The notes beneath the pieces were generated by a model. The model was not told the origin of the DNA. It was given only the letters and a program-made list of their open reading frames with translations, and searched no databases. From assembly GCA_041664165.1 (NCBI GenBank), contig JBAYLH010000002.1, positions 9,665-73,664 on the forward strand: 64,000 nt of DNA, read 5' to 3'. Source of the DNA: Candidatus Buchananbacteria bacterium. GTDB lineage: Bacteria > Patescibacteriota > Patescibacteriia > Buchananbacterales > UBA6539. Below are positions 13,407 through 36,665 of this stretch, in pieces. The position numbers and the translations under genes are program-made. The stretch's first letter is position 1; each line of letters begins with the position of its first letter.

Positions 13407-13441
13407 CCTAATAACCTAAAACCTAACTTCCTAATTTCTAA
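13407..13441. repeat. CCTAA-period microrepeat (stop codons in all frames)
   Basis: cctaataacctaaaacctaacttcctaatttctaa between nucleotidyltransferase gene and serS. Confidence 0.6.
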
Positions 13442-13444
13442 AGT

Positions 13445-14692
13445 ATGTTAGACATCAATAAAATTAGAACCGAAAAAGAAGCCGTCAAAATGGCGCTGGC
13501 CAAAAGAATGGCCGTTGATACCATTGATTTTGAGGCGATTTTAAAACTCGACGATGAAAGAAAAAAACTACTGCAGCAGGTGGAAAATTTGAAAGCGGAA
13601 CGGAACAAATATTCCAAGACCAAACCCGACCCGGAAATTATCAGTCAAATGAAAGCGACCGGCGAAGAAATCAAAAAACTTGATGAAGAAGTCAAAACAG
13701 TTGAAAATGAGCTTAACCAAAAATTGGCCGAGCTGCCTAATCTGCCGGCCGATGACGTCGTTTCCGGCGGCAAAGAAAATAATCAGGTGATTAAGACTTT
13801 CGGTAAAAAACCGGAATTCAAATTTGAGCCCAAAGATCATGTCCAGTTGGCGACCGAACTCGGCTTGATTGATTACGAGCGGGGAGTCAAAATTGCCGGC
13901 AACGGTTTTTGGGTTTATAAAGGAGCCGGGGCATTGCTTGAATGGGCATTATTAAGTTATTTTATCGATTTTCACCAAAAAAATAATTATGTTTTTATGA
14001 TCCCGCCGTTTTTGCTGACGGAACAGTCCGCTTATACTTCCGGCCATTTGCTGAAATTCCGCGATGATTTGTTTTGGACGCAGGATAAGCTTTGTTTAAA
14101 TGCCACTTCCGAAATGATGCTGGGCAATTATCATCGCGATGAAATTTTAACGGCAGCGGAATTGCCGCTTAAATATTGCGCTTACTCGGCTTGTTTCCGC
14201 CGGGAAGCCGGCAGCTACCGCAAAGAAGAGCGGGGGATGATTCGGGGGCATCAATTCAATAAAATTGAAATGTTTCATTATACCAAGCCGGATCAGTCTT
14301 GGAATTCGTTTAAAGAGCTAGTGGCTAACGCCGAAAAATTAGTCGAGGGTTTGGGTTTGCACTATCAATCAGTCCAGCTGGCCGCCGGCGATGCTTCGGC
14401 CGCGATGGCTAAAACGATTGACATTGAAGTTTGGATTCCCAGTATGGGAATTTATAAGGAAGTCAGCAGTGTTTCCAATGCCTTAGATTACCAAGCCCGG
14501 CGCGGCAATGTCCGTTTTAAAAGCCAGGCCGGCGGTAAAAATGAATTTGTCCATACGCTGAATGCTTCGGGTTTGGCCACGAGCCGGCTGTTACCGGCAA
14601 TTTTGGAACAGTTTCAGGATAAAGCGGGCAATGTTAAAATTCCAAAAGTGTTGAAAAAATATTGCGGATTTGATGTAATAAAGAGCAAGTAG
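13445..14692 (+). CDS. serS: seryl-tRNA synthetase
   Basis: N-terminal coiled-coil arm and class II core. Confidence 0.9.
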   Translation: MLDINKIRTEKEAVKMALAKRMAVDTIDFEAILKLDDERKKLLQQVENLKAERNKYSKTKPDPEIISQMKATGEEIKKLDEEVKTVENELNQKLAELPNLPADDVVSGGKENNQVIKTFGKKPEFKFEPKDHVQLATELGLIDYERGVKIAGNGFWVYKGAGALLEWALLSYFIDFHQKNNYVFMIPPFLLTEQSAYTSGHLLKFRDDLFWTQDKLCLNATSEMMLGNYHRDEILTAAELPLKYCAYSACFRREAGSYRKEERGMIRGHQFNKIEMFHYTKPDQSWNSFKELVANAEKLVEGLGLHYQSVQLAAGDASAAMAKTIDIEVWIPSMGIYKEVSSVSNALDYQARRGNVRFKSQAGGKNEFVHTLNASGLATSRLLPAILEQFQDKAGNVKIPKVLKKYCGFDVIKSK

Positions 14693-14768
14693 AAAGGTAA
14701 AGCTGAGAGTCCATAATTGTGTCCCGCAGCTGCAAAAATTAATTAAACTAATTTATAACTTTGAAAAT

Positions 14769-15902
14769 ATGAAAAGAATAATTTCAATTTTTACTTTAGC
14801 TATTGCAGTTAGCGCGATTATTGTTTTGAGTGCCGCTGAAACAAATGCCGCGACAAAATACGCGGATGGTGTGTTTATCAGGGCTGCTAGCGGAAAAATT
14901 TATTTAATTAAAGAGCAGAAGAAATTTTATATCAGTTCGCCGGCAGAGCTAGGGTTGTATGGCAAGATCAAATTGTACAATGTAAGTGACGGAGTAATTG
15001 ATAGCTTCGCCAACTATACAAGTTCGATAGTCGGTAATAATGCCAGATCATTTTTGAAAAGTCCAGATGGCAAAATTTATTTAGTTGAGAATCAAAAAAA
15101 GCGTCACATTACCACGCTGACAGAATTAAAATCATTTGGGTTTATTAAGCTTGTCAACGCAACTTATGAAACAATAAACGCTTATCCTGATCTGACGCAA
15201 TCGGATTATACAGACGGATCCCTGCTAAGACTTGATAGTGGAAAAATTTATCTATTAGATAATGGAAATGTTCGATATATTAGTTCCATTGCTGAATTGA
15301 AACAATTAGGGCTAAAAAAAATGTATAATGTCACGTTAGATGTCTTGAATAAATATCAAGTTAGTGTTTGCGATTCCGCCACTCACCGCGAAGGTAATGT
15401 CTGTGTTGCTGATTCTAAGCCGTGTTCAGTAGGTAATGGAGCCGGTTATCAAAATTGGAGCTCAGATGGGTGGTCTAATTGCGTGGCGAGTACTTGCAAC
15501 AGCGGATATCAGGTAAAAGACGGTTTGTGTGCCGCTAGTACATGTGATTCCGATAAGCATTTAGAAAATGGAATATGTAAGGATAATTATGAGGTCTGCA
15601 TAATTAGCAATGGAACAGGACATCGGATTTGGGATTTCATAAATTGGACCGGTTGCGAAGTTGATAGTTGCAATAGCGGCTATTATGAAAAAAATTTCTC
15701 ATGTGTTCCCAATGTATGCAGTTCAGATCAACATTTAGAAAACGGAGTCTGCGTAATTGATGTTACTCCCTGTACTGTCGCGAATGGATACGGTGTTAAA
15801 TCTTGGAGTGATACCGCTAATCAATGGAGTAGCTGTAATGCTTCTAGCTGTTTTAGCGGGTATAACCAGGTTCAGCAAAACGGCGTTTGGGTTTGTAGGT
15901 AA
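14769..15902 (+). CDS. secreted protein with N-terminal ~40-aa G-K-I-Y-L repeats and Cys-rich C-terminal repeats
   Basis: Signal peptide; three SGKIYLI...G repeats; repeated C..NSGY..C modules. Confidence 0.6.
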   Translation: MKRIISIFTLAIAVSAIIVLSAAETNAATKYADGVFIRAASGKIYLIKEQKKFYISSPAELGLYGKIKLYNVSDGVIDSFANYTSSIVGNNARSFLKSPDGKIYLVENQKKRHITTLTELKSFGFIKLVNATYETINAYPDLTQSDYTDGSLLRLDSGKIYLLDNGNVRYISSIAELKQLGLKKMYNVTLDVLNKYQVSVCDSATHREGNVCVADSKPCSVGNGAGYQNWSSDGWSNCVASTCNSGYQVKDGLCAASTCDSDKHLENGICKDNYEVCIISNGTGHRIWDFINWTGCEVDSCNSGYYEKNFSCVPNVCSSDQHLENGVCVIDVTPCTVANGYGVKSWSDTANQWSSCNASSCFSGYNQVQQNGVWVCR

Positions 15903-15922
15903 AAAAGCTTAATTAAGTTTAA

Positions 15923-17038
15923 ATGTATAATTCCTGGCTAGAAATATCCAAATCAGCGATTTTGCATAACTTAGCCCAATATCAGCGGATTGTCGGTAAA
16001 ACTGTTGAGATTATGCCGATTGTCAAAAGCAACGCCTATGGCCATGGTCTAGTTGAAGTAGCCAAAATTGTCAGTCCGAAAGTAAAATGGCTTGGTGTTG
16101 TCAGCCTGGGCGAAGCCTTAAATTTGCGGCAAAATGGCATTAAAAATAAGATTTTTGTTTTAAGTTACGCTCAAAGCCGCTATTTAGAACCAGGGATAAA
16201 ACAGAATATCGAACTGCCGGTTTATGATTTGGCTTATGCAAAATTAATATCGCAAAAGGCAGCGAGGCTGAGAAAAACTGCCTTGATTCACGTTAAAATT
16301 GATACGGGAGCTTCAAGAGTCGGAGTTTTAGCCGCTGACGCAATAGAGTTTATTCTAGAATTGGCTAAATTGCCGAATTTAAAAATTAACGGCATCTACA
16401 GCCATTTTGCCGCGGCCGAAGAAAATCAAAAATATTCAAAGTTTCAGTTGGACAAGTTTAATAAGATATTAGCAGAATTGAGTCGGTTTAAAATTTGCAT
16501 TCCTTATCGGCATTTTGTTTGTAGTGCGGCGACTTTAACTGAAGACAAAGCTTATTTTAATCTAATTCGTTTAGGTTTAGGTCTTTATGGCTTATGGCCT
16601 TCAAAGCAGACCCAAAAAATCGCTCAAAAAAAGTATCCTTGGTTAAAATTAATTCCGGCGCTGGCTTGGAAAACCAAAGTAATTCAGGTTAAGGAAGTTC
16701 CGGCTGGCACTTACGTGGGATATGGTTGTACCTTTAAGACTAAAAAGAAAACTAAATTAGCCGTTTTAGCGGTTGGCTATTGGGAAGGCTATGACCGGCA
16801 TTTGTCTAATATTGGCGAAGTGATAATTAAAAATAAAAAATGCCCGGTTATCGGGCGAGTCTGTATGAACTTGACGATGGTTGATGTTAGTTTAGTTAAA
16901 GATGTCAAAGCCGACGATGAGGTAACGCTTTTAGGTGGGGGAGTAACAGCTGACGAATTGGCAGATAAAATTGGCACAATTAATTACGAAGTCGTGACCA
17001 GGGTTAATCCGCTTTTACCGAGATTTTATCTAAAATAA
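15923..17038 (+). CDS. alr: alanine racemase
   Basis: PLP-binding VKSNAYGHG motif near N-terminus. Confidence 0.85.
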   Translation: MYNSWLEISKSAILHNLAQYQRIVGKTVEIMPIVKSNAYGHGLVEVAKIVSPKVKWLGVVSLGEALNLRQNGIKNKIFVLSYAQSRYLEPGIKQNIELPVYDLAYAKLISQKAARLRKTALIHVKIDTGASRVGVLAADAIEFILELAKLPNLKINGIYSHFAAAEENQKYSKFQLDKFNKILAELSRFKICIPYRHFVCSAATLTEDKAYFNLIRLGLGLYGLWPSKQTQKIAQKKYPWLKLIPALAWKTKVIQVKEVPAGTYVGYGCTFKTKKKTKLAVLAVGYWEGYDRHLSNIGEVIIKNKKCPVIGRVCMNLTMVDVSLVKDVKADDEVTLLGGGVTADELADKIGTINYEVVTRVNPLLPRFYLK

Positions 17039-17041
17039 TAT

Positions 17042-18187
17042 ATGGCGAAAAAGAAACTAAAAATTGGCGTAATTTTCGGCGGCCGGTCGGGCGAGCACGA
17101 AGTTTCAATCGTTTCGGCTCAGTCAGTGATTAAGGCTTTGGATAAGGCTAAATACGAAGTTATCCCGATCGGCATTACCAAGGAAGGCAGCTGGGTAGCC
17201 GGATCCGAAGCCGTAAAGTTTCTCAAGGCCGGTATTGAAAAATTACCTTTTAAATCGGTCTTAATGCCGGATCCGACCGAAAAAGGTTTAATTTCGGTTA
17301 AAGAAAAAAAATTAGCGCCGGCAATTGGCGCCAAAAATATTGCCACTAAATTAGACGTGATTTTTCCGGTTTTGCATGGCACTTTTGGCGAAGACGGCAC
17401 GACTCAGGGTTTACTGGAGCTAGCCAATCTGCCGTATGTCGGAGCCGGTGTTTTAGGTTCGGCTTTGGGTATGGATAAAATTGTGCAAAAGCAGTTATTT
17501 GCTCAGGCCGGTTTAGGCATCGTTGATTACGATTGGTTTTCAAATAGCGAGTGGCGCTTTAACCAGCCAAAAATTTTAGCCCGGCTTAAAAAAAAGTTAA
17601 AATACCCGATGTTTACCAAGCCAGCTAATTCCGGGTCAAGCGTTGGGATTAACAAATGCCATGATCGCCGGGAATTAATTTTAGGAATTAAGGATGCGAT
17701 TTTGTATGACCGAAAAGTAATCGTTGAGCAGGGGATTGAAGACCTTTGCGAAATTGAAGTGGCAGTTTTAGGCAATGACAATCCAAAAGCTTCAGTTTGC
17801 GGCGAGATTGTCGCTTCCAACGAATTTTACGATTATGACGCTAAATACGTTGACGGCAAGTCAAAAGCGATAATTCCCGCCAGCTTGCCGGCCAAAGTGG
17901 CCAAACAAATTCAAGCCATTGCTGTTACCGCCTTTAAAACGCTGGATTTATCAGGCATGGCTCGGGTTGACTTTTTGGTCACCAAAAAACGCCACCGGAT
18001 TTATCTTAATGAAGTTAATACGATTCCCGGCTTTACCTCTTTTTCGATGTATCCCAAGCTTTGGCAGGCTTCGGGTTTGTCATATCAAGTTTTATTGGAT
18101 CGGCTGATTAATTTAGCGCTTCAACGGCACCGGGAGAAAAATAGTCTAGCCACGTCGTATCAGCCAAAACAAGATTGGTATAAATAA
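17042..18187 (+). CDS. ddl: D-alanine--D-alanine ligase
   Basis: ATP-grasp fold, GEDG, LPAKV motifs. Confidence 0.9.
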   Translation: MAKKKLKIGVIFGGRSGEHEVSIVSAQSVIKALDKAKYEVIPIGITKEGSWVAGSEAVKFLKAGIEKLPFKSVLMPDPTEKGLISVKEKKLAPAIGAKNIATKLDVIFPVLHGTFGEDGTTQGLLELANLPYVGAGVLGSALGMDKIVQKQLFAQAGLGIVDYDWFSNSEWRFNQPKILARLKKKLKYPMFTKPANSGSSVGINKCHDRRELILGIKDAILYDRKVIVEQGIEDLCEIEVAVLGNDNPKASVCGEIVASNEFYDYDAKYVDGKSKAIIPASLPAKVAKQIQAIAVTAFKTLDLSGMARVDFLVTKKRHRIYLNEVNTIPGFTSFSMYPKLWQASGLSYQVLLDRLINLALQRHREKNSLATSYQPKQDWYK

Positions 18188-18190
18188 ATT

Positions 18191-19054
18191 ATGCGTCATA
18201 AAAGAGATTATCAAAGGAACAATTTTAAAAACCCTTTTTTCCCAAAAAATAAAAATCAGAAAAAAAAATTTGGTTTTAAATCCGTTTTTTTTCTTATTTT
18301 TATTGTCGTAATCCTGTTTGCGATTGCCAGTAATGTCAGCCGGCTGCAGATAAAAGAGATTAAGGTTTTTGGCAATGAATATATCAGTCAAGTCGAAATA
18401 AAAGGAGTCATCGCCACTCAGCTGGCCAAAAAACGCTTTTTCTTTTTCAGCCAAAATAATATTTTGTTTTTCAGCCGGCGCCAGGCCGCCAAAGAGCTTC
18501 AAAAAAAATATCTTTTTGAACAGCTCAAAATTAAAAAACAATATTTTGACACCATTGTCATTACGCTCAAAGAAAAAACTTCCGGCTTGATTTGGTTAAC
18601 CGGTAGCAGCCAGTATTACTTGGATTTAACCGGCAAAGTTATTAGAAAAATTGAAAATGACAATTTAGTCGTTGCCGCCGGCGCCGGGACAACTCAAGTC
18701 ATCCGCCAGCCAGCCAGCATTGGCAATTATCCGTTAGTTGCCGATGAAAGCAACCAGCCGATTGAACCCGGCCAGCAAGTGCTTAATCAGTCATTAGTTG
18801 ATTTCGTTATTAGTTTAAACCAGAAATTAAAAGATAATGCCGGTTTTGAAGTTTTGAGTTATGGCTTAGTCAGCTCAAGTGCCAAAGAGATTAAAATGAT
18901 AACTAGGCAAGGCTGGGAAGTTTATTTCAATACGACTGAAGCCGCCCAAAAACAAGCTGATCGGCTGTCTCTGGTTTTGAATGAAAAAGTTAAAGACCGA
19001 AGCAAACTCAAGTATATTGATTTGAGATACGGCGATAAAGTTTTTTTGAATTAG
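18191..19054 (+). CDS. ftsQ: cell division protein FtsQ/DivIB-like (POTRA)
   Basis: Single TM followed by POTRA-like segment; follows ddl as in dcw clusters. Confidence 0.6.
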   Translation: MRHKRDYQRNNFKNPFFPKNKNQKKKFGFKSVFFLIFIVVILFAIASNVSRLQIKEIKVFGNEYISQVEIKGVIATQLAKKRFFFFSQNNILFFSRRQAAKELQKKYLFEQLKIKKQYFDTIVITLKEKTSGLIWLTGSSQYYLDLTGKVIRKIENDNLVVAAGAGTTQVIRQPASIGNYPLVADESNQPIEPGQQVLNQSLVDFVISLNQKLKDNAGFEVLSYGLVSSSAKEIKMITRQGWEVYFNTTEAAQKQADRLSLVLNEKVKDRSKLKYIDLRYGDKVFLN

Positions 19055-19187
19055 TTTTTTTGTTTTCAGCATCAAAACAAATATGATGCGTCGCAAAATA
19101 TTTAGAGTAGGCGATAGGGGCAGCTTAAAGTAGAGGAGAGCAAAATTTAATCTCAACCAGGGTTTGGTGAGATTAAGAAATAATATC

Positions 19188-19212
19188 AAGTGCCTCAAAA
19201 GGGCACTTTTTG
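19188..19212 (+). terminator. rho-independent terminator candidate
   Basis: GTGCC-tcaaaag-GGCAC hairpin followed by T-run. Confidence 0.5.
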
Positions 19213-19592
19213 CGATATTAGTGCTAGGTTCGGATTCTAATCAATTGGGTAAATTTATTTCAAAATTTGTCTATTTTGGTATGACGATATTCTACGGGAT
19301 AATTATTTGTAAATTTTAGTTTCAGTTAGCTTAATTTTTTTAATCCGCCAAGGTTGCTAAGGTCTAAATTAGGTAGTTTTATCAGCCAGTATGCCAAATT
19401 GGTCAACTTAGAGCTTTACTATAGCTTTAGTTAAATCATGGGTCCTATGTGTCGTTTAAGGTATATTGTGCGACTCTAGATTACTCAGTTTGTTAATACT
19501 ATTGTGCTATCCCCCTTGATTTGGTGAAGTTATGAATCCGGGATTTTTTTAGTGGTTATGTAATATATTTAATCAAAACTCGTCTTAATTAT

Positions 19593-19620
19593 TGACAGAA
19601 TTATTTTTAAATTATAAAAT
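19593..19620 (+). promoter_or_regulatory. sigma70-type promoter
   Basis: TTGACA-16 nt-TAAAAT. Confidence 0.45.
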
Positions 19621-19654
19621 ATTAAGCCGTCCTTTGAAATCGTTGTTAATTGCC

Positions 19655-19695
19655 CTTCCCTACCTGCCGGTATAACCTGTTTTACCTGCAGCTAA
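19655..19695 (+). promoter_or_regulatory. 5' UTR hairpin sequestering the Shine-Dalgarno
   Basis: AATTGCCCTTCC pairs with GGAGGGCAATT, which contains the AGGAGG SD. Confidence 0.35.
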
Positions 19696-19783
19696 AGGAG
19701 GGCAATTTGCGAGAAATAACTTGCATGAGCCAGAATCGTCACCTGGTTTGTTAGCCTCTCCGCTAATTATTAAGCTCAAACGT

Positions 19784-19945
19784 ATGTTGAAGGCTTTGTC
19801 GGGAGCGCTAACTCTGGCGCTGACTCTAATTGTGCTTAAGTTATTTCTCCCCGAGGTTGCCGCCGGACTGATTGAATTGACTGTAAAAGTCATTCACGTG
19901 CTGAATGTTTCAGTCGATCAGGCTTCGGCCAACCTTCCCCAATAG
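19784..19945 (+). CDS. small helical/hydrophobic peptide (53 aa)
   Basis: ATG after SD region; strong terminator directly downstream; alternative TTG start at 19721. Confidence 0.35.
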   Translation: MLKALSGALTLALTLIVLKLFLPEVAAGLIELTVKVIHVLNVSVDQASANLPQ

Positions 19946-19950
19946 CAATA

Positions 19951-19988
19951 AAGGCTCGGCGGTTTTTTCCTCCGAGCCTTTTCTTTTT
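19951..19988 (+). terminator. rho-independent terminator
   Basis: AAGGCTCGG...CCGAGCCTT 9-bp stem followed by TTCTTTTT. Confidence 0.6.
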
Positions 19989-20008
19989 ATCTATAGTTAT
20001 GAAGAATT

Positions 20009-20668
20009 TTATTTATTGATTTTTTTGTATAAAAGGTATGAGTAAATCATTGGGAATAACGAGACAATGGTAATTCCAGCAATGAAAGAATACCAAAATA
20101 ATTCAGCGGGCAGAAATGAGCCGAAAATCATAAATAAACCCATCAGCATGAATAATTTTCCGCCCAAGCGGTGGGTTTTATTCCAGACTTGTTCATTAGA
20201 CAAAGTCCAGGGGGTCCGAATGCCCATAAACCAATTAGACTTAATCTTACCCATGTAGTTGCCCAGAATTAAAAATAACAGGCCAACAATTGTCGGGACA
20301 ACAACGTTAACTGGCAGCTCGTAGCCCAACCCGGCTAAACCGGTATAAAAATAAATTGCGACCATAAAACCAATAAAAAAGTTTTTAAAAATATGGTAGA
20401 CTTTGGCAAATTCAAGATAATGCTCTTTTTTAGGATCAAGATAAGGTAAACCTAAAAATAAGAGATAAAGGCCGAAAATTAAGCCGGGGAAAAAGAAAGC
20501 GGCAAATCCCTTGCCTGACCAGCCATCGATTTGACCCCGGTAATTCCAGTGAGTCGGAACTTTTTCGGGAAAATTAGCATAAAAATAAAAGCTGGCAAAC
20601 ACACTTAGAATAATTAAAATCACTGGGATAAATTCGGTTTTTAAAGTTGGTTTTATCGGACTGCTCAT
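20009..20668 (-). CDS. sdpI: SdpI/YhfL-family membrane immunity/signalling protein
   Basis: Polytopic 219 aa with family-typical N-terminal HWN..G..DGW motif; cotranscribed with ArsR regulator. Confidence 0.7.
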   Translation of the reverse strand: MSSPIKPTLKTEFIPVILIILSVFASFYFYANFPEKVPTHWNYRGQIDGWSGKGFAAFFFPGLIFGLYLLFLGLPYLDPKKEHYLEFAKVYHIFKNFFIGFMVAIYFYTGLAGLGYELPVNVVVPTIVGLLFLILGNYMGKIKSNWFMGIRTPWTLSNEQVWNKTHRLGGKLFMLMGLFMIFGSFLPAELFWYSFIAGITIVSLFPMIYSYLLYKKINK

Positions 20669-21356: not shown

Positions 21357-21360
21357 AAAA

Positions 21361-25296: not shown

Positions 25297-25445
25297 AGAG
25301 TTTATAAAAATTTCTTCGGTCGGGGCAGCGGCTGGCTGAATCTGAACCGCTCGACTTCTTGCGGCCCGTCAGCTCGGTAGCGGCTCTTGGTCCGGTAGCG
25401 GGTAACTTTGCTCTTGTTGTAATTTCTCGATGAATGGTCTCTCAT

Positions 25446-25480
25446 AGGTTAGGTGCTAGGGATTAGGTGTTAGGAGCTAA
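25446..25480. repeat. TTAGG/CCTAA microrepeat overlapping stop of thpR
   Basis: ggttaggtgctagggattaggtgttaggagctaa; the thpR TAA stop lies inside the repeat. Confidence 0.6.
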
Positions 25481-28309: not shown

Positions 28310-29107
28310 ATGCCTATAGTTTTTGCGGCGATTACGCCCCATCCGCCGGTTTTAATTCCGGAAATCGGCAAGGATAACGTAAAAAAAATCGATAAAACCC
28401 TGCAGGCGTTCAAGAAACTGGAGCAGGATTTTTACGCCTCAAAACCGGAAAGCGTGGTGATAATTTCGCCCCACGGAAAAATTTTGCCTGATTCTTTCAG
28501 CATCAACTTGAATTCCGATTACGCGGCGAACTTTAAGGAATTCGGCGATTTCGGCCTGGAATTAAAATTCAAAAGCGATTACATGTCGATTCAGGAAATT
28601 CGAGCCGCCGATGAAACCAACCAGGCCGTGCCGATAGTTTTAACCAGCGAAAAAGAAATTGATCACGGTTTTTCCATCCCCCTTTATTTTTTGACGAGCC
28701 ATTTGAAAAATATTCCGATCATTCCGCTGACTTATTCCGGCTTGAATTATCAGCAGCATTTCGCTTTCGGCCAGTTTTTGCATCGGCAGCTGGCGAAAAT
28801 CAACAAACGTTTCGCCATTATCGCTTCGGGCGACTTGTCTCATCGGCTGACCAAAGACGCTCCGGGCGGATTTTCGGCCGAGGGCAAAAAATTTGATAAA
28901 AAGCTGGTTGATTTGATAAAAAAGAAAGATACGCAAGGTATTTTGAATCTCGATCAGGAATTAGTAAAACAAGCCGGCGAATGCGGCTTGCGGTCAGTGG
29001 TTACTTTGCTGGGAATTTTGGATGATTTGAACGTCAAGCCGGAGGTGCTGTCTTACGAAGGGCCGTTTGGCGTCGGTTATTTAGTCTGCAATTTTAAGTT
29101 AGTGTAG
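28310..29107 (+). CDS. LigB/MEMO1-superfamily protein (AmmeMemoRadiSam protein B-like / class III extradiol dioxygenase fold)
   Basis: N-terminal AAITPHPP, ISPHG and GDLSHRL His motifs of the LigB/Memo fold. Confidence 0.6.
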   Translation: MPIVFAAITPHPPVLIPEIGKDNVKKIDKTLQAFKKLEQDFYASKPESVVIISPHGKILPDSFSINLNSDYAANFKEFGDFGLELKFKSDYMSIQEIRAADETNQAVPIVLTSEKEIDHGFSIPLYFLTSHLKNIPIIPLTYSGLNYQQHFAFGQFLHRQLAKINKRFAIIASGDLSHRLTKDAPGGFSAEGKKFDKKLVDLIKKKDTQGILNLDQELVKQAGECGLRSVVTLLGILDDLNVKPEVLSYEGPFGVGYLVCNFKLV

Positions 29108-29190
29108 GTGAGTTGGTAAGTTTGTAAGTTTTTAAGTTGGTAAGTTACTAAGTTTATAAGTTTGTAAGTTGGTAAGTTTTTTAGGCGGCG
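29104..29190. repeat. 8-nt period tandem repeat NNTAAGTT x ~10
   Basis: ttggtaagtt tgtaagtt tttaagtt ggtaagtt actaagtt tataagtt ...; TAA every 8 nt closes all three frames. Confidence 0.7.
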
Positions 29191-29207
29191 GCTGGCTTGG
29201 GTGCCAG

Positions 29208-29471
29208 CTATTTTTTAGTTATCAATTTGAAAAAGTATTTCCATTTTTCGCCGGTTTGGCAAAGCTCTTTAGTCTCATTGAGGCATTTTTCGACAAAATC
29301 TTTGGTGTTTTCTTTGCAGATTTTGAAAACGGAGTTTCTTTTAAAAGTCGGAATAGCCAAATCATCGATTATTTTCAAAGCAAAATCCTGCCAGGGATAA
29401 GCCGGCGGTTTGATGGTCTTTTTTTTCGCCATAATGTCTTTGAAATTTTGCGGACCCAAGTCAATTGTCAT
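29208..29471 (-). CDS. hypothetical small soluble protein (87 aa, 3 Cys)
   Basis: Start moved to ATG (MTIDLGPQNF); last gene of minus-strand small-protein operon. Confidence 0.4.
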   Translation of the reverse strand: MTIDLGPQNFKDIMAKKKTIKPPAYPWQDFALKIIDDLAIPTFKRNSVFKICKENTKDFVEKCLNETKELCQTGEKWKYFFKLITKK

Positions 29472-29523
29472 AATATTTAGACTATAGCAGATTAAAGCAA
29501 TAAAAAAAAGCCAGCCAAAACTC

Positions 29524-29733
29524 TTAGCCAAGGGCGTCGTCAATCTGCTGACAAATAAACACGATGACGCCAAAGAGTAAAGTAATGACTAGCTGCAAGC
29601 CAGTTGGGCTTTTGATTCTTTTTGCGGCATGCCTTTTGATTTCTTCAGCGACCAGGTAGGCATTGGTACTGAAATAGGCCGCCAGGAAAATCGAGCCAAC
29701 AATTGATGCTGCCAGCCAGACCCAGCTAACCAT
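29524..29733 (-). CDS. small membrane protein (69 aa, 2 TM)
   Basis: GGAGG SD 6 nt upstream; hydrophobic. Confidence 0.5.
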   Translation of the reverse strand: MVSWVWLAASIVGSIFLAAYFSTNAYLVAEEIKRHAAKRIKSPTGLQLVITLLFGVIVFICQQIDDALG

Positions 29734-29989: not shown

Positions 29990-30011
29990 TTTTTTTCAAA
30001 AAATAATAATT

Positions 30012-30075
30012 TATCCCCACAAATCCCTTGACACTATCTTTTTGAAAGGTTAGAATATATTTTTCCCCACAAAAC
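30012..30075 (+). promoter_or_regulatory. sigma70 promoter flanked by two CCCCACAAA boxes
   Basis: TTGACA(30027)-17 nt-TAGAAT(30050); ATCCCCACAAA at 30012 and TTCCCCACAAAA at 30063; downstream hairpin TCCCCA...TGGGGA. Confidence 0.55.
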
Positions 30076-30137
30076 TTTTTCAATTTTTTGGGGATTTTAA
30101 TTTCTTCAATAATATTAACAAATTAAAACAAAAATTA

Positions 30138-30275
30138 ATGAAACAAAATTTTGACTCAATCGTCAGCGAACTGAGATTTTATCTGACCCGGCAGTTGGAA
30201 GCTTACCAAAAAAGCGATAATGTGACTTACTCGCAGCTGGAAGAAAAGATTTTGGAACTGGAAAAGAAATTATAA
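30138..30275 (+). CDS. possible small coiled-coil protein (45 aa)
   Basis: ATG ORF downstream of promoter, no clear SD. Confidence 0.25.
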   Translation: MKQNFDSIVSELRFYLTRQLEAYQKSDNVTYSQLEEKILELEKKL

Positions 30276-30321
30276 ACTTAATCAATATTATGTTATAATA
30301 TCGATAGGTCATCTTTAAATT

Positions 30322-30819
30322 ATGCCTAAAATATTGCCAATCAAAATTTATCCTTGTCCGGGTTTGCGCCAAAAATCACAGGTTTTAAAAACCGAGGAGC
30401 TGGGGAATAAAGAAATTAAGCAGCTGATTTCAGATATGGAAAAGACGATGGTTGAAAAAGACGGCATCGGCCTGGCCGCGCCGCAAGTCGGCAAAAATCT
30501 CCGAATCGTGGTGATTAGCACGGCTGACGGTTCTTTGGTTTTAATTAATCCGAAGATTTTAAGGAAATCCTGGCGAACGGAAATTCAAGAAGAAGGCTGC
30601 TTGAGCTTTCCGGAAATTTTTGGTTTGGTGAAGCGTTCGCTCAAAATTAAATTAGTTGCTTTAGACCGAACTGGCAAAAAAATAAAGTTCAAAGCTAGCG
30701 GCTTATTTGCCCGCGTCATCCAGCACGAAGTCGATCATTTGGACGGAATTTTATTTATTGACAAGGCGAAAGAAATTGTTAAGGGTAAAGACAAATTAGC
30801 CGGTCTGGAAAAAAAATAA
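30322..30819 (+). CDS. def: peptide deformylase
   Basis: GLAAPQVG, EGCLS, HEVDHLDG motifs. Confidence 0.9.
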   Translation: MPKILPIKIYPCPGLRQKSQVLKTEELGNKEIKQLISDMEKTMVEKDGIGLAAPQVGKNLRIVVISTADGSLVLINPKILRKSWRTEIQEEGCLSFPEIFGLVKRSLKIKLVALDRTGKKIKFKASGLFARVIQHEVDHLDGILFIDKAKEIVKGKDKLAGLEKK

Positions 30820-30828
30820 TTTTTCTTT

Positions 30829-31773
30829 ATGCAAGAGCTTAAACCAAAAATAATTTTTTTGGGCACGCCGGAGTTTGCCGTCCCCAGTCTTTTGGCTTTA
30901 ATCGCCAATGGTTTTAAACCGGTTTTAGCCATCACTCAACCGGATAAACCCGCCGGCCGAAAACAAGAATTGACTCCCCCGCCGATTAAGCAAGCGGCTT
31001 TACAAAACGAGATTTTAGTTTTGCAGCCACCGGCTAAAAATGATTTGGCGGAAATTTTTTTACAGTATCGGCCGGATCTCTGCGTTTTGGTCGCTTATGG
31101 TTCAATTATCCCTAAAGACTGCTTAAACCAGCCGCGCGGCGGTTTTTTAAATATCCATCCGTCGCTTTTGCCGAAATATCGCGGGTCATCGCCGATTCAG
31201 ACAGCGATTTTAAACGGCGAAAAAGAAACCGGCGTTTCCATTATCCAATTGGTTTCCCAAGTTGACGCCGGGCCAATTATTGCCCAAAAAACCATGGCGA
31301 TAGCGGAGACTGATAACGCCGAAACTTTAAGTAAAAAGTTAGCCGAACTCGGCGCTGAGCTGTTAATAGAAATTTTAGCGAACTATTTGGCCGGAAGAAT
31401 TTTGCCCAAACCCCAGGACGAATCCAAGGCGACCTTTACGGCCATGATCAGTCGGGAAGACGGCCAAATCAATTGGCAAAAAACCGCCGCGGAAATCCAG
31501 CGGCAATTTCGGGCTTTTTATCCTTGGCCAGGGGTATTTACCCAAATCTCTGGCCAGCGCCTTAAAATCGCAAATTTGAGCGTTTTAGAGGGCAATTTTA
31601 GCGCTAAATTGGTACCGGGGGCGATATTTTTCGGGCCTCAAGGCGAGCTGGCAGTCAGCTGCGGCCAAGGGGCAGTTGAGCTAAAAACCGTGCAGCCGGC
31701 CGGTAAAAAAGAAATGCCCGGCATTGAATTTTTACGCGGGCAAAAAGATTTAATAAGTAAGGTTTTAAAATAA
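30829..31773 (+). CDS. fmt: methionyl-tRNA formyltransferase
   Basis: Formyltransferase N-domain (HPSLLPKYRG) plus C-terminal domain; def-fmt synteny. Confidence 0.9.
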   Translation: MQELKPKIIFLGTPEFAVPSLLALIANGFKPVLAITQPDKPAGRKQELTPPPIKQAALQNEILVLQPPAKNDLAEIFLQYRPDLCVLVAYGSIIPKDCLNQPRGGFLNIHPSLLPKYRGSSPIQTAILNGEKETGVSIIQLVSQVDAGPIIAQKTMAIAETDNAETLSKKLAELGAELLIEILANYLAGRILPKPQDESKATFTAMISREDGQINWQKTAAEIQRQFRAFYPWPGVFTQISGQRLKIANLSVLEGNFSAKLVPGAIFFGPQGELAVSCGQGAVELKTVQPAGKKEMPGIEFLRGQKDLISKVLK

Positions 31774-31796
31774 ATTAGAAATTATTAATTATAAAT

Positions 31797-32336
31797 TTAT
31801 TTTATAATGTATTTCCAGCCTGGTTGCCAGGCTTTTTGGTTGCGCCAATCTTCGTCAATCGCCTGTTCCCAGGTTTTTTTGTTAAGCAAGACTTCAAGGG
31901 CCAGCTGCGGTGCTTGATGAGCAACGATGGCAATATGCTTGCCGCCATAATTGGTTTTTAAAAATTCTACAAAGTCAGCCAGCCGGTTTTCAACCTCAGA
32001 AAAACTTTCGCCGCCAGGAAAAGGGGTTTTGATAAATTGTTTCAGATTAGTTTTGAATGAATCGGGCTGGCCGTTGAAGCCGCCATAGTTTATCTCGCGC
32101 AATCTTTGATCGGGAATAATTTCATATTTATCGCCAAAAGCTAATTTCGCCGAATCAACGGCGCGTTTGAGGTCGGAACAAAAAATTACATCAAACTTTT
32201 GGTCAGCGACTTGGCCGGCCAATTCTTTTGACTGCTGGATTCCGAGTTTCGATAATTCCCCGGCCAGCCAGCCGGTGGCCAATCCCTTTTCGTTGTCAGT
32301 CGTGGTGCCGTGAACAAAATAAGTGATTTTAATCAT
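31797..32336 (-). CDS. histidine phosphatase (phosphoglycerate mutase-like) family protein
   Basis: N-terminal VHGTT (RHG-type) catalytic motif. Confidence 0.75.
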   Translation of the reverse strand: MIKITYFVHGTTTDNEKGLATGWLAGELSKLGIQQSKELAGQVADQKFDVIFCSDLKRAVDSAKLAFGDKYEIIPDQRLREINYGGFNGQPDSFKTNLKQFIKTPFPGGESFSEVENRLADFVEFLKTNYGGKHIAIVAHQAPQLALEVLLNKKTWEQAIDEDWRNQKAWQPGWKYIIK

Positions 32337-33834
32337 AGTTATTACAAATTACCGATACCAATATAATGTAAGTAATTCCCAGCGGATGATTAAGATAAGG
32401 CGAAAAGATGTTAGTCACACAAAGCGCGGCTAGGCCGAGGAGTAAACCAGCTTGTAGCTTATAGCTTGTAGGTTGTAGGTTGCTTTGTTTTCTGCTTTCT
32501 GCTCTCTGATTTCTGAGCCGTTTGATTCCTTGATAAAATATTTGGCCGATTAATCCGAGATAAATAGCTAAACCCGCTAAGCCGAGCTTGAGCATAATAT
32601 CCAAATAGCCCCATTCAAAAGCAGCGGTGGTGTAAATCCCGCCGGGATAAGCTTTTAAAATCCGCGGGTCATTGCTTTGGTAAGTTAACTCTTTGCCGAA
32701 ACCGGAGCCGAAAATTAAATGCTGAAAAATTGCCTGGCTTAACGGCTGAAGCTCATTGAGCCGGCTGATACCGGCAGCTTCGCCGGGCAGGTTTTTGAAG
32801 CGGTCGGCAATGACGTTGCCGGAAAAATTGCCGCTGATTAGTTGAACCAGATACAGCTGGGAAGTGAAAATAACAACCAAGGCCAGCAGCAGCCAGGCAG
32901 TTTTTTTGAACCGGAAGCCGAAATAAAGCCAGCTCAAAACGATCAGCCCAAAAATCGCGGCCACTCCCCCGACCCAATAGCTGCGCGACTGGCTGATGAT
33001 GACAGCTAAGCCGGTTAAATATAAATAAATCGCCGGTACCAAATAATTTTTCCAAGCCTTGAGCCGAAATTGGGAGATTAAAATCGTCAAAATAATCAAA
33101 AAGCCGATTAAGCAATAAAGCTGCGATTGCAAAAAAACCCGAAAAAGAGTGCCGGAAATATAAGTGATTTCGCCAACACCGGTATCGCGCAGCCATTTGT
33201 AAAAAACGCCGCCCAGGCCGGTAAAATTATGGGAGAATAAAAGCAAAATGCCCACGGTTTTTAAGGCCAAATAAGCCGTGGCGCCGGTTAGAATTTGTAA
33301 AATATTTTCAATAACTTTTTCTGCTTTAATGGCTTCCCAAAAAACAAAAATCAGAATAAACCAAGCCCAGGCATTGGCGTCAAAAAAGACTTTGGAGAAT
33401 TCGTTATGCCAAAGGCCGTTGATCAAGCCAATGGCAATGGCTGAGGCTAGGAGGAGGTAAGGAAGTAGGTGGTAAGTATTAGGTATTAGGTAATAGGTAT
33501 TAGGTAAAAGTAATTTCTGGCGGCGGGTGATTTTTTTGGCCAGCCAGACGGCCAAAACGACTAAAAAGATGCCAAGGCGAATTGATAGCGAGAAACCGCC
33601 AAGATTCAAGCTAAATAGCTGGCCGAAACCGCCGGTAAAAATTTCCGCCAGCAAAAGGTAAAGGCCATACTCAAGCTTAACCAGCGAAGCCGCCAAAACG
33701 GCGAGTAAAACTACAAAAAAAGCCGCTTGACCCGCCGGCGGTATCAAGTAGCCGGCAAAAGAAACTGAATCGGCAATGATTAAAAATAAAATTGTCCAGA
33801 AAAATAATTTGCCGAAAATTTTAGCTAAAGTCAT
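32329..33834 (-). CDS. O-antigen ligase/polymerase-like (Wzy_C) polytopic membrane protein
   Basis: ~12 TM helices with periplasmic loop; contains in-frame TTAGG-type repeat coding NTYYLIPNTYHLLP. Confidence 0.7.
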   Translation of the reverse strand: MTLAKIFGKLFFWTILFLIIADSVSFAGYLIPPAGQAAFFVVLLAVLAASLVKLEYGLYLLLAEIFTGGFGQLFSLNLGGFSLSIRLGIFLVVLAVWLAKKITRRQKLLLPNTYYLIPNTYHLLPYLLLASAIAIGLINGLWHNEFSKVFFDANAWAWFILIFVFWEAIKAEKVIENILQILTGATAYLALKTVGILLLFSHNFTGLGGVFYKWLRDTGVGEITYISGTLFRVFLQSQLYCLIGFLIILTILISQFRLKAWKNYLVPAIYLYLTGLAVIISQSRSYWVGGVAAIFGLIVLSWLYFGFRFKKTAWLLLALVVIFTSQLYLVQLISGNFSGNVIADRFKNLPGEAAGISRLNELQPLSQAIFQHLIFGSGFGKELTYQSNDPRILKAYPGGIYTTAAFEWGYLDIMLKLGLAGLAIYLGLIGQIFYQGIKRLRNQRAESRKQSNLQPTSYKLQAGLLLGLAALCVTNIFSPYLNHPLGITYIILVSVICNNYD

Positions 33835-33909
33835 TTTGTTACGGGGTAAATTGAAAGTTTTGCTATTACTAACTTAGCTCATTTTAGGTTAAAAATCAAT
33901 ATTTTTTTC

Positions 33910-33962
33910 AAAAAAAAGACCTTGGCCGCCGGTCTTCTCGTTTGAGAGCCAGTGGCCAAGGT
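33910..33962 (-). terminator. rho-independent terminator (minus strand) after GC-rich gene
   Basis: On minus strand AGACCGGCGGCCAAGGTCT hairpin then T8. Confidence 0.5.
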
Positions 33963-34019
33963 TTTGGGGTTGGGAACTCGGCTTTGCCGTGATTCGTCGA
34001 ACGAATTGTCTTCGCTGTT

Positions 34020-34481
34020 CTAGACGATCAGGACATGAGCCGAGCCGACGGGAATTCCGGCGCGGAAGTTGCAGTTTCCGGCCGATGGTACGGCGCCGCC
34101 CGCGAGGGTCATCGTCAGCCCGTTTACGCCGTCGAAGTCAGCGGCCAACGTGTAACCGGGCGCCACTGCGCTTAGCTTCGCCAAATTGGCGTCCTTATAG
34201 GTCAGCGTCGGCTTGTCCGCCATCGCCTTTGCCACCAGTACGTCCGCTTCCTTCGTTCCCATCGCCGTGACGATCAGCGCGTCGCTGAATGCCAGGCTCG
34301 TGCCGCCTTCGATGTTGCTATCCTGTGTGCTCTTCAGCATGAACGCCGCCGGGGTCGGGGTGGCGAGTGCCAAAGCTTCATTCGCATCGGCCGCGTACAT
34401 TTTGGCCGGACTCGTCATCAGTGTCAGCGCGATCGCCGTAATCGAGATGACGATAATCAGTGGTGCCAGAGTCTTTCGCAT
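34020..34481 (-). CDS. secreted hypothetical protein, GC-rich foreign composition
   Basis: Signal peptide MRKTLAPLIIVISITAIALTLM; Ala/Thr-rich; codon usage unlike host. Confidence 0.55.
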   Translation of the reverse strand: MRKTLAPLIIVISITAIALTLMTSPAKMYAADANEALALATPTPAAFMLKSTQDSNIEGGTSLAFSDALIVTAMGTKEADVLVAKAMADKPTLTYKDANLAKLSAVAPGYTLAADFDGVNGLTMTLAGGAVPSAGNCNFRAGIPVGSAHVLIV

Positions 34482-35057
34482 AACAGTGTTCTCCTTTTTG
34501 CACCCTTGTTATGGGTGCGGTTTGTGTTGCACGTCATTGCCCCAACCTAATTGGCAAGCAGAGTTAGCCTCCTTTCTTTTCTTTTCACTCTACTTGTTTA
34601 CAGAAAAAAGCGTACCAAATTGTTAGTACTCTTCCTCTGAGCTGCTTGTATTATAAACCATTTATTCAAAAAATCAAGGGGGGGCTGTGGGTATTTTTTT
34701 TGAGTTTATAAAAAGAGCCCTTGTTCATTGTCAGCGAGACTTTGATTGGGGGCTCCAGACTCTAACTCCATCACCTCGCTTTCTGGCCGTAAAAACGGCT
34801 CAAAACCCGTATTGCTACGGGAGATAATGGATCACCTCCCTTCCGGCGGTCAAAACTCTGAATCTTTTCATGACTCTACCCTCCTGCCTGAAAGTAGCAG
34901 GCCGCGTTAGAAGCTGTATTTATTGTAAAACGAAAAAAACGATAAATCAATATTTTTTTGTCATTTTGCACTGGTTTTTATTGACGACGGACTTGATGCA
35001 AAATCCAGGAGTCATTTTTGCCGCCAATGGCGACGTATAGCCATATTAAATTTCAAA

Positions 35058-35846
35058 TCAATTTTTGTTCAAACCGTGCTTTTGAAAATAGTATAGAGCG
35101 CTTTGGAAAAAGACTTTTTGTTTTTTGACGCCTAGCTGTTGGACGAAACTTTGGCCGCCATAATGAATAATTTCGCCGTCGGGCGTAAACCAAACCTGCC
35201 AGCCACTGGCAACGGCGCGGCGGCAAAGATCGACTTCCTCAAACCAGGTAAAAAAATTTTCATCGAACAAGCCGATTTCGTCCAGGGTTTTTTTCCGCAG
35301 CAGAAAAAACGAACCGGCGACCTGGTCAACCGGCTGGGCGATTTTGTAATTAAAATCTTTGGCGAGATAAGAAGATAAAGCCGGGAGATTGGGAAAAATT
35401 TTGGCGATTTTAGTGATGATTAAAAATATCGGCCAAAAGCTGGGAAACCGCCGAACTGAAAACTGAAGCGTCCAGTCCGGGTTTAGATGTTTGCAGCCGG
35501 CAATGCCGACTTGGTAATTGCTTTTCATAAAATCAACCATTCTAGGCAGGCAGTCTTTAAGGATGACGGTGTCGGGGTTTAAAACCAAAATAAAATCGCC
35601 CCGGCTTTTTAAAATTCCCTGGTTATTGGCCGTGCCGAAACCGAGGTTAGTCGTATTGGGAATTAAAACCACCCGGGGGAATTCTTTTTTAATCATTTCC
35701 ACCGTGCCGTCGCCGGAAGCGTTGTCAACGACAATAATTTCGAAGGTTAAATCGCCCCGATATTTGATGATTGATTCCAGGCATTTTTTCAGCAGATCCT
35801 TGACGTTCCAGGAAACGATGATGATTGATAGTTCCGGACTTGGCAT
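35058..35846 (-). CDS. glycosyltransferase family 2
   Basis: SIIIVSWN...DNASGDGT and DxD-type motifs. Confidence 0.8.
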   Translation of the reverse strand: MPSPELSIIIVSWNVKDLLKKCLESIIKYRGDLTFEIIVVDNASGDGTVEMIKKEFPRVVLIPNTTNLGFGTANNQGILKSRGDFILVLNPDTVILKDCLPRMVDFMKSNYQVGIAGCKHLNPDWTLQFSVRRFPSFWPIFLIITKIAKIFPNLPALSSYLAKDFNYKIAQPVDQVAGSFFLLRKKTLDEIGLFDENFFTWFEEVDLCRRAVASGWQVWFTPDGEIIHYGGQSFVQQLGVKKQKVFFQSALYYFQKHGLNKN

Positions 35847-35905
35847 TTTATTTTAGTAATTAGGTTTTAGGTTCTAGGACTAACTTTTTAATACCTAGTA
35901 CCGAT

Positions 35906-36583
35906 TTAGATGACGTCTTGTTTTTTAATTTTTTTCCAGCTGCCTTCCTTCAAATCGCCCAGCTCCAGCTTGTCGATTCGGATTCTTTTTAATTTTACCA
36001 CGGTGTAGCCCAGTTTTCCCAGCATTCTCCGGATTTGCCGGTTAATGCCCTCTTTGATTTCCAGCCGGACGGATTTGTTTTTGACGGCGATAATTTTGGC
36101 CGGTTTCAGTCTTTTGCCGTCAATTACCATTCCTTTGGCCAGTTTTTTCGCGTCTTCGGCTTTTAAATCCGTATCCAAAACCACGAAGTATTCTTTTTGG
36201 CCGCCATAGCGGGGATGAGTCAGCTGATTGGCAAATTCGCCGTCGTTAGTCAAAAGCAAAAGTCCGCTGGAATCTTTGTCCAGCCGGCCGACCGGGTAAA
36301 CCCGCTCTTTGGTTTTAACCAGTTTTAAAACGGATTGGCCCTGGCTTTCGGTCGTGGTGCTGATATAACCGATCGGCTTATTCAAAGCCAGGTAAATTTT
36401 ATGATTTTCAGTTTTGACGATTCTGCCGTTATATTCAACCTCGTCAGCGGTTTCATCGATAGTAGTGCCAAGCTGAGTTACAACTTCGCCGTTGATTTTT
36501 ATTTTGCCGCTAGTAATTAGTTCTTCGGCTTTGCGGCGGGAAGTTATTCCGGCGGCAGCGAGAAATTTTTGGAGTCGCATCAT
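35906..36583 (-). CDS. rluB: pseudouridine synthase (RsuA/RluB family) with N-terminal S4 domain
   Basis: S4 domain then conserved GRLD catalytic Asp motif. Confidence 0.85.
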   Translation of the reverse strand: MMRLQKFLAAAGITSRRKAEELITSGKIKINGEVVTQLGTTIDETADEVEYNGRIVKTENHKIYLALNKPIGYISTTTESQGQSVLKLVKTKERVYPVGRLDKDSSGLLLLTNDGEFANQLTHPRYGGQKEYFVVLDTDLKAEDAKKLAKGMVIDGKRLKPAKIIAVKNKSVRLEIKEGINRQIRRMLGKLGYTVVKLKRIRIDKLELGDLKEGSWKKIKKQDVI

Positions 36584-36665
36584 GGGTTAGGGATTAGGGG
36601 TTAGGTAGTTAGGTATTAGGTAATAGGTGCTAGGTATTAGGGGTTAGGAGGTTAGAGGTTGTTCC
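36584..36665. repeat. TTAGG-type degenerate tandem repeat (~11 units)
   Basis: gggttagggattaggggttaggtagttaggtattaggtaataggtgctaggtattaggggttaggaggttagagg; TAG on + and TAA on - in all frames. Confidence 0.7.

Follow-up and report, generated by a model that had tools for sequence, protein, structure and literature searches.

Degenerate CCTAA heptamer arrays between and within genes of a Candidatus Buchananbacteria contig

A 64,000-nt stretch of DNA from an uncultivated Candidatus Buchananbacteria bacterium (contig JBAYLH010000002.1, positions 9,665 to 73,664 of the forward strand; hereafter the window, numbered from its first letter) was found to carry short degenerate tandem arrays of 7- to 8-nt units. 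They lie in the spacers between genes (sites 1 to 5) and inside an O-antigen-ligase-like (Wzy_C) gene. A CCTAA core recurs at five loci within these 64 kb, whereas the filler bases are variable. The arrays are real, non-random and biologically patterned, and their interest is modest. The explanation that we favour, and to which we give an even chance, is that they are repeats born of slippage and kept only as unstructured, start-codon-free, stop-rich and G-free intercistronic spacers that suit initiation independent of a Shine-Dalgarno (SD) motif.

Arrays were detected with Tandem Repeats Finder (TRF) and by motif clustering; strict period-7/8 autocorrelation missed most of them because the period alternates between 7 and 8. 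Period-7 arrays were delimited by TRF at 13407-13426, 25448-25474, 35860-35878 and 36584-36660 (the last with 10.7 copies and 76% matches), and a period-8/24 array of 8.6 copies at 29111-29181. The CCTAA sites thus have period 7, or 7 and 8 mixed, with 2.6-10.7 copies each, and site 3 has period 8. Inside the Wzy_C gene, period-7 arrays were reported at 33476-33506, 32449-32482 and 32489-32515. The units of the window arrays are imperfect, with 70-92% matches between them. Five clusters of at least three CCTA/TAGG motifs within 12 nt were observed vs 0.17 expected from 100 dinucleotide shuffles, and one cluster of eight TAAGT motifs vs 0.02 expected. The pattern CCTAA-N2-3-CCTAA-N2-3-CCTAA had five matches in the window and 0.00 in 100 shuffles. 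An earlier note, made from the letters of the window alone, had described microrepeats at five sites; reading of the sequence, TRF and the shuffles found them at all five as described.

The gene context of the arrays was taken from a simple gene map and Pfam scans. Site 1 (13407..13442, plus strand; CCTAATAA-CCTAAAA-CCTAACTT-CCTAATTT-CTAAA; 0% G) separates a cytidylyltransferase-like gene from serS, whose ATG (13445) comes after a gap of 2 nt. Site 2 (25446..25480, minus strand as sense; CCTAAC-ACCTAAT-CCCTAGC-ACCTAAC) holds the thpR/LigT stop codon (25463-25465), which is the TAA of one of its units, as the earlier note had seen. It adjoins the ATG (25445) of an uncalled 47-codon open reading frame (ORF), and a WecG-type glycosyltransferase gene lies 150 nt downstream. 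Site 3 (29104..29185, plus strand; (GGTAAGTT)x8.6, G/T-rich on the sense strand) starts where a LigB/Memo-like gene ends (stop codon 29105-29107); it is this gene, and not thpR, that ends there, and the array presumably lies in its 3' untranslated region (UTR). Site 4 (35847..35885, minus strand as sense; CCTAGAA-CCTAAAA-CCTAATT-ACTAAAATAAA) adjoins, with a gap of 0 nt, the ATG (35846) of a family 2 glycosyltransferase (GT2). Site 5 (36584..36665, minus strand) comprises about 11 CCTAAnn units, is 41% C and 4% G, holds the stop codon (36652-36654) of the upstream NUDIX gene and adjoins the rluB ATG (36583), again with a gap of 0 nt. Every array has an internal position in syntenic operons, where it lies either between two genes or within one.

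The orientation of the CCTAA arrays is regular. In all four intergenic CCTAA arrays and in the in-gene copy, CCTAA lies on the coding strand of the adjoining gene, and this holds across strands, site 1 being on the plus strand and the other CCTAA arrays on the minus strand. Site 3 is the opposite case, since it follows a stop codon and carries the G/T-rich strand as sense. Sites 1, 2, 4 and 5 contain no ATG, GTG or TTG on the sense strand. The earlier claim that stop codons appear in every reading frame held at sites 2-5, where all three sense frames are closed; at site 1 only two of the three are. At site 5, about 11 UAA/UAG triplets spaced by 7-8 nt stand beside the rluB ATG.

The rluB ATG directly follows CCTAATCCCTAACCC and lacks an SD motif, as had been stated; the lack is not particular to this gene. 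An SD-like 4-mer precedes only 6 of the 59 ATG-start genes of the window, so that a missing SD before rluB is the rule in this genome. G makes up 15% of the bases in the 40 nt upstream of these 59 starts and 23% across the genome; 71% of the genes have T at position -1. The array-led genes rank as the 2nd, 6th and 10th least structured of the 59 initiation regions. The fold predicted for site 5 is worth -1.1 kcal/mol over 102 nt, and fold z-scores are -0.6 at site 1, -0.24 at site 2, +0.7 at site 5, +0.9 for the in-gene copy at 33452 and -2.65 at site 4. The canonical AGGAG motifs of some genes argue for a presumably normal anti-SD sequence. Starts with an SD (AAGGAGG, AAAGGAG or similar) include those at 29733 (minus), 34481 (minus), 43000 (plus), 55417 (minus), 60744 (minus) and 61426 (minus), and they tend to fall where the GC content is higher (42-44 kb, 54-56 kb and 60-62 kb); genes without the motif have A/T-rich, G-poor leaders.

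In the explanation that we favour, tandem duplication or slippage would create degenerate 7-8-nt arrays in place at gene junctions, and the arrays would survive nearly exclusively between cistrons or in protein loops that tolerate them. Of the two orientations, the one retained before a start would be that with G-free CCUAA as the mRNA strand. A leader of this kind would offer no AUG, GUG or UUG, no SD-like motif and no folding, together with UAA/UAG stops (in all frames at sites 2-5); translation of the upstream gene would thus end in the array, and the next start codon would be the first one met and fully exposed. This would fit a genome in which about 90% of the genes start without a Shine-Dalgarno motif. 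The arrays are probably transcribed within operons, and they may help, rather than merely spare, initiation or re-initiation at the downstream start. The earlier suggestion of translational insulators would be compatible with this anatomy, that is with intercistronic arrays that are G-free on the sense strand, without ATG, GTG or TTG, closed by stops at sites 2-5 and predicted to be unfolded. It appears rather improbable that the arrays go further and are functional re-initiation tracks of an SD-poor bacterium of the candidate phyla radiation (CPR), the preferred heptamer being set by a co-evolving S1- or cold-shock-type factor. A ribosome terminating in the array, or a subunit landing there, would then be delivered to the first downstream AUG, and the array would replace the coupling by ATGA overlap of relatives.

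The origin of site 5 was read from a junction alignment with four relatives. By their rluB proteins, the closest genomic relatives are Candidatus Buchananbacteria and other Patescibacteria metagenome-assembled genomes, with 54-70% identity. NUDIX and rluB overlap (ATGA) or abut in the four relatives, and site 5 is a 66-nt insertion located precisely where ...TAAAATT meets ATGATG. Next to it, the window sequence CAACCTCTAACC resembles the seed of the site 5 repeat, which favours growth in place. No terminal inverted repeats or target duplications were noticed at this insertion junction and no associated transposase was seen at the arrays, no systematic search having been made for either. At the same NUDIX-rluB junction the relative L004 carries (TTAATTTC)x6.6 abutting the ATG, and L003, the closest relative, carries nothing.

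Between rluB and GT2, distant relatives have a spacer of 4-18 nt. The spacer of L003, L084 and L085 combines two arrays, first a purine-rich one (AATTAKG-like) and then (CCTAATT)n, which is present as a perfect (CCTAATT)x4.7 before the GT2 gene in L003. These spacers form hairpins of -20, -33 and -17 kcal/mol (z -5.2, -6.5 and -5.0, respectively), and site 4 of the window, with its weak fold, is a decayed ortholog of this two-array spacer. Paired arrays also fold in L006, in L009 and inside the ligase gene of L003 (z -4.2, -4.3 and -3.7). The window arrays might accordingly be decayed arms of palindromic intercistronic elements, in which a complementary array pair forms a hairpin that stabilises the upstream message or gates downstream translation; in such an element, purine-rich repeats after the stop and CCTAATT repeats before the next start would work as one unit. 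Both arm types are found at site 1. There, a purine-rich heptamer tract (13355..13389, plus strand; GAATCAG GAATTAA GAATTAT GAATCAT) lies in the C-terminal tail of the cytidylyltransferase-like ORF (12887..13396) and is a degenerate complement of the site 1 array. This 5' arm shares GAATCAGGAATTA with the start of the hairpin spacer of L084. In-frame insertions in a membrane-protein gene also recall the Rickettsia palindromic elements. The site 1 pair has no significant fold, however, and neither site 2, site 5 nor the in-gene copy at 33452 folds beyond shuffles. Site 5 has no partner array and appears to have grown in place from the junction sequence, and no inverted repeats or target duplications were noticed in the absence of a systematic search. 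The hairpin expected of a palindromic element was not found in the window arrays, and we regard both the decayed-arm origin and its two-array working unit as unlikely.

These comparisons also bear on the earlier idea of a genome-specific family resembling repetitive extragenic palindromic (REP) elements. The family aspect is borne out by the CCTAA core at five loci and by the use of CCTAATT in close relatives. The genome-specific and palindromic aspects are not, as other Buchananbacteria use other heptamers at the same junctions, (CCTAATT)n occurs in metagenomes and viruses, and the window copies are not palindromic. As in REP elements and bacterial interspersed mosaic elements (BIMEs), MITEs and Rickettsia palindromic elements, the arrays are short, dispersed and intercistronic, with in-frame copies in protein loops, and the paired arrays of relatives form strong hairpins. 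In contrast, the window copies are direct repeats without a significant hairpin, and arms, where present, are heptamer arrays.

Further arrays were observed in two relatives. L003 has (ATTCAAA)n arrays at 8850-8880 and 15336-15363, one of them abutting a start codon; this is the same heptamer (TTCAAAA) as that upstream of start codons across Nostoc PCC 7120. In L009 (1019-1105), (AGTTGAA)n and (TAACTTTA)n form a hairpin of the 25-bp class (z -4.3) that ends 5 nt before a start. The second array holds TTAACTTTA, the 'epsilon' translational enhancer of phage T7 gene 10, which could easily be chance in an A/T-rich sequence.

Per 100 kb, the window has 14 period-7 arrays and L003 has 29; other Buchananbacteria have 7, and 959 kb of loci from outside the CPR give 1.6. 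In 239 kb of Buchananbacteria sequence, 32 of the 49 period-7/8 arrays are intergenic vs 10% of the bases (p = 2e-20), and 15 overlap the stretch of 30 nt upstream of a start; such stretches make up 3.6% of the bases. Nineteen Buchananbacteria arrays are start-proximal; 11 of these end between -2 and +5 nt from the start, and most have 0-3% G in sense. The enrichment at gene ends, for which the earlier note had proposed a census, is therefore strong. Arrays of (CCTAATT)n were found in at least 120 metagenome and at least 70 viral stretches, on contigs of 24% to 70% GC, and none of about 170 such arrays in these contigs lay inside a called ORF. CCTAATT was also considered as a specially widespread heptamer, and this was rejected: permuted control heptamers gave 27, 74 and 30 viral stretches vs 70 for CCTAATT, so that heptamer arrays are common generally and CCTAATT is not special. 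TAACTGA was commoner in viral stretches (at least 120). When array orientation was compared with the crudely measured SD use of host contigs, a Mann-Whitney test gave p = 0.25. Phages show the pattern of one favourite heptamer per genome as well. The phage-like contigs IMGVR_UViG_3300038696_000410 (L253, L282) and IMGVR_UViG_3300026159_000618 (L311, L346) each repeat a single heptamer, (CCTAATT)n or (CTCAATT)n, in 8-9 separate arrays, which are mostly co-oriented and in some cases stand right before an ATG.

This distribution bears on the main rival, to which the others are lesser: the arrays may be neutral by-products of a lineage-wide tendency to 7-8-nt duplication, selection only purging harmful ones, such as those within genes or G-rich ones in leaders, and the survivors, merely tolerated, doing nothing. 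We hold this to be a real though minority possibility. It accounts for the many unrelated period-7 units common across Buchananbacteria, for the gain and loss of arrays among relatives at one junction, for the ease with which arbitrary heptamers of the same composition form arrays in viral contigs, and for the arrays in tolerant protein loops. It accounts less well for the precision with which arrays stop at start codons and for the recurrence of one core at five loci in 64 kb. The lack of substitutions in the covered arrays of a strain that differs by 29 single-nucleotide polymorphisms (SNPs) in 14 kb also speaks against neutrality; the argument is weak, because the arrays span few bases.

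Several observations weigh against the explanation that we favour. The leaders of most window genes are G-poor and unstructured through plain A/T-rich sequence without repeats, so arrays are not needed for that. Site 2 abuts no called gene, only the uncalled 47-codon ORF. In-place slippage from local seeds alone does not explain a CCTAA core at five loci. The 3' arm of the rluB-GT2 hairpin of the relatives reaches the start codon, and would therefore occlude initiation rather than expose it. In metagenome and viral contigs, (CCTAATT)n arrays just after stops more often have the G-rich strand as sense (38 vs 14 in metagenomes, 55 vs 17 in viral stretches); before starts the C-rich strand is sense in 21 vs 11 metagenome cases, and the viral orientation is reversed (7 vs 24). 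Finally, a benefit of the arrays to translation is purely something that we infer.

The in-gene arrays belong to the Wzy_C gene (32329..33834). A CCTAATA-type array (33452..33510, minus strand) lies in frame in a variable loop and encodes LLLPNTYYLIPNTYHLLPYLL, as described earlier. Its units 2 and 5, the sole units with a would-be in-frame TAA, read TAT and TAC, which indicates long-term selection for an open frame. Two adjoining in-frame arrays (32449..32515, minus strand), (GCAGAAA)x3.9 and (ACCTACA/AGCTACA)x4.9, encode part of a C-terminal loop. Heptamer arrays occupy the same two variable Wzy_C loops in the window, L003 and L085, with units that differ among all three, and L089 has no array in the C-terminal loop. 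Strain differences in Wzy_C due to the arrays were looked for and rejected: what splits the gene in L088 is a run of N and not a repeat frameshift, and the L085 and L086 proteins (492 vs 494 amino acids) align without an indel at the arrays.

Stability between strains was assessed from consensus assemblies only. Five contigs from three other samples were compared (L001 and L212 from a Joint Genome Institute (JGI) sample, L002 from SRR18595301, L083 and L213 from SRR6484324), which cover sites 2-5 and the in-gene arrays but not site 1. No gap, indel or SNP was seen in any covered array of these five contigs. Between L001 and the window, 29 SNPs occur in 14.2 kb (0.2% divergence), 0 of them inside arrays. 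This argues against hypermutable tracts, and phase variation is not supported. That reading, put forward in the earlier note for the in-gene copies, would have gain or loss of 7 nt switch or tune the glycosyltransferase and O-antigen-ligase genes. A unit length not divisible by 3, neighbours some of which make surface glycans, and a 7-bp 5' UTR repeat precedent in Haemophilus influenzae (PMC12721329) would suit it. Perfect tracts, such as those of L003 before the GT2 gene and in the ligase gene, (AAGAATC)x4.9, would suit it as well, and occur only in the relatives L003 and L084. The window arrays are degenerate, the in-gene copy avoids stops by substitution, no length variation was seen in the covered arrays, and serS and rluB are housekeeping genes; for the window, phase variation is close to refuted, and we hardly credit it.

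The recurrence of one core with variable fillers would also suit landing pads for a lineage-specific nucleic-acid-binding protein (S1, cold-shock, or TRAP/HutP-like) that defines a post-transcriptional regulon including envelope-glycan genes. In arrays of the TRAP/HutP type, a ring-shaped protein binds regularly spaced (G/U)AG or UAG triplets of the RNA and occludes the region of the start. The roughly 11 evenly spaced units beside the start codon at site 5 would suit landing pads of some kind, and three of the five loci are envelope-glycan genes (WecG-type glycosyltransferase, GT2 and Wzy_C). A binding protein is the favoured hypothesis for the TAACTGA repeats (PMC4679880), and a binding partner has been postulated in Nostoc (bioRxiv 10.1101/2022.06.06.494920). 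We nevertheless consider landing pads unlikely: at a given junction, relatives carry another heptamer or lack one altogether (L004 and L003 before rluB), unrelated units coexist in the window (GGTAAGTT, GCTTACT, ATAAATT and GCAGAAA), and no candidate protein was identified, the genome not having been searched for one.

The composition of site 5 raises one more alternative, in which the array is a Rho-loading tract resembling a Rho utilization (rut) site, and transcription of rluB and beyond depends on the speed of ribosome occupancy. A rut site is about 70-80 nt of C-rich, G-poor, unstructured and untranslated RNA. Site 5 spans 82 nt with 41% C, 4% G and no predicted structure, and it includes the stop codon of the upstream gene, an arrangement known from the tna rut site. 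The other arrays, of 35-39 nt, are too short, and the strand rule of the class as a whole puts the G-rich strand in 3' UTRs, contrary to Rho loading. No rho gene was found among the annotated genes of the window by Pfam scans of the window only. Rho loading at site 5 is thus very improbable in our view.

Signals of transcription and known RNA families were searched for as well. No sigma-70-like promoter was predicted on the sense strand, and no terminator-like site, within arrays 2, 4 or 5. The only terminator found follows site 3 directly: a hairpin (29190..29216, plus strand; GGCTGGC-TTGGGT-GCCAGCT then ATTTTTT) that ranks second-best among the terminator-like sites predicted. Rfam (gathering thresholds) and ARAGORN gave no match anywhere in the window, and the arrays are therefore not a curated RNA family. 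Three further readings were rejected. The arrays are internal and not at the ends of a linear replicon, against telomeres; they have no spacers, against CRISPR; and GGG runs are found in part of site 5 only, the other arrays having GG at most, against quadruplexes. The G-rich sequence in question, GGGTTAGGGATTAGGGGTTAGG (36584-36605, plus strand, the non-coding strand near the rluB start), resembles the vertebrate telomere repeat and nearly has the four G-runs of a quadruplex.

A literature search for literal CCTAATT arrays gave no match. The arrays belong to the class of heptamer repeats near start or stop codons (Beggiatoaceae, cyanobacteria, Xanthomonas), whose defining features they display. 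For the TAACTGA repeats of marine Beggiatoaceae, found also in cyanobacteria and a few Bacteroidetes, 169 sets are described, mostly forward and a few nt upstream of starts, usually without a ribosome-binding site; some sets overlap the end of the upstream ORF and few lie inside ORFs (MacGregor, 2015; PMC4679880). The window arrays are similar in having tandem 7-nt units with mixed variants, nearly all intergenic and forward near starts, some overlapping an upstream ORF end and few in ORFs, with stops in forward frames. The repeat-led genes lack an SD in a low-SD genome in both cases; one heptamer serves many loci of a genome among the published repeats, and the CCTAA core serves five within the 64 kb. 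The window arrays differ in the unit, CCTAAnn being G-free, more degenerate and of mixed periods 7 and 8; in the host, a small-genome CPR bacterium; and in origin, traced here to in-place insertion at a formerly overlapping junction, whereas horizontal transfer was inferred for TAACTGA.

The heptamer simple sequence repeats GGGNATC and GGGGA(C/T)T of Xanthomonas and Nostoc have their G-rich strand antisense up to 50 bp upstream of an ORF and sense up to 50 bp after a stop, overlap with the stop included, and phase variation has not been linked to them (Rehm et al., 2015; PMC4692102). That paper also cites cyanobacterial short tandemly repeated repetitive (STRR) heptamers. Their strand rule is shared by the window, where four of four upstream arrays have TTAGG antisense and site 3, after a stop, has GGTAAGTT in sense. 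Both sets occur in excess in the non-coding DNA that separates co-oriented genes, both lack a tie to surface genes or mobile elements, and both have stable flanks. Unlike those repeats, the window arrays have quadruplex G-runs only in part of site 5, on the non-coding strand, and show no preference for four units.

In Nostoc PCC 7120, contiguous heptamers (TTTTGAA/TTCAAAA and others) stand near start codons and promoters genome-wide, and deletion constructs altered reporter output (bioRxiv 10.1101/2022.06.06.494920), so such arrays can matter. There, as in the window, arrays stand beside or overlap the start codons of genes with a weak or distant SD. The Nostoc arrays are in monocistronic promoters with NtcA/LexA interplay, whereas those of the window are intercistronic and without a predicted promoter. 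In the Haemophilus influenzae hmw genes a 7-bp 5' UTR repeat drives phase variation (PMC12721329; PMC2651432). The likeness lies in 7-nt units before a start codon or inside surface-structure genes; the window arrays differ in being imperfect and invariant in the five contigs that cover them.

Heptamer repeats by starts and stops have been known for decades in cyanobacteria, giant sulfur bacteria, Bacteroidetes and Xanthomonas, and their role is unsettled. What is new here is this anatomy in a small-genome, almost SD-free CPR bacterium, a very different lineage, with one array datable as an insertion at a junction where the genes used to overlap. The window therefore offers a compact test case of whether such arrays serve SD-independent translation or are tolerated products of slippage. 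For annotators, the arrays give upstream genes their stops, furnish membrane proteins with loops encoded by repeats and give rise to small spurious ORFs.

One such ORF may be that of 47 codons, very basic (MRDHSSRNYNKSKVTRYRTKSRYRADGPQEVERFRFSQPLPRPKKFL), which begins right after the site 2 array (25302-25445, minus strand). It had no Pfam match and is not called in two public contigs; it may encode a genuine small protein, or may be an artefact that arises because the adjacent array is rich in stops. Beyond the terminator of site 3, two minus-strand ORFs overlap, 29208..29573 with a TTG start and 29524..29733 with a strong AAAGGAGG SD. Neither had a Pfam match, and they may be a single frameshifted or mis-called gene.

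Two other arrays of the window have units of their own. An array of GCTTACT/GCTTAAT units with 8/17-nt periods (4015..4068, plus strand; z -2.95) stops 8 nt short of the ATG (4069) at which mreB probably starts; its unit is different, but its class is that of the CCTAA arrays. An (ATAAATT)x4 array (31770..31797) lies between the convergent fmt and His_Phos genes. In the strain L001 of the JGI sample (99.8% identical), an extra NUDIX gene of 163 amino acids (L001 14184-14660) is present between His_Phos and fmt, exactly at this array (31770-31810), and the SNPs between L001 and the window bunch beside this point (31800-31806 and 32205-32210).

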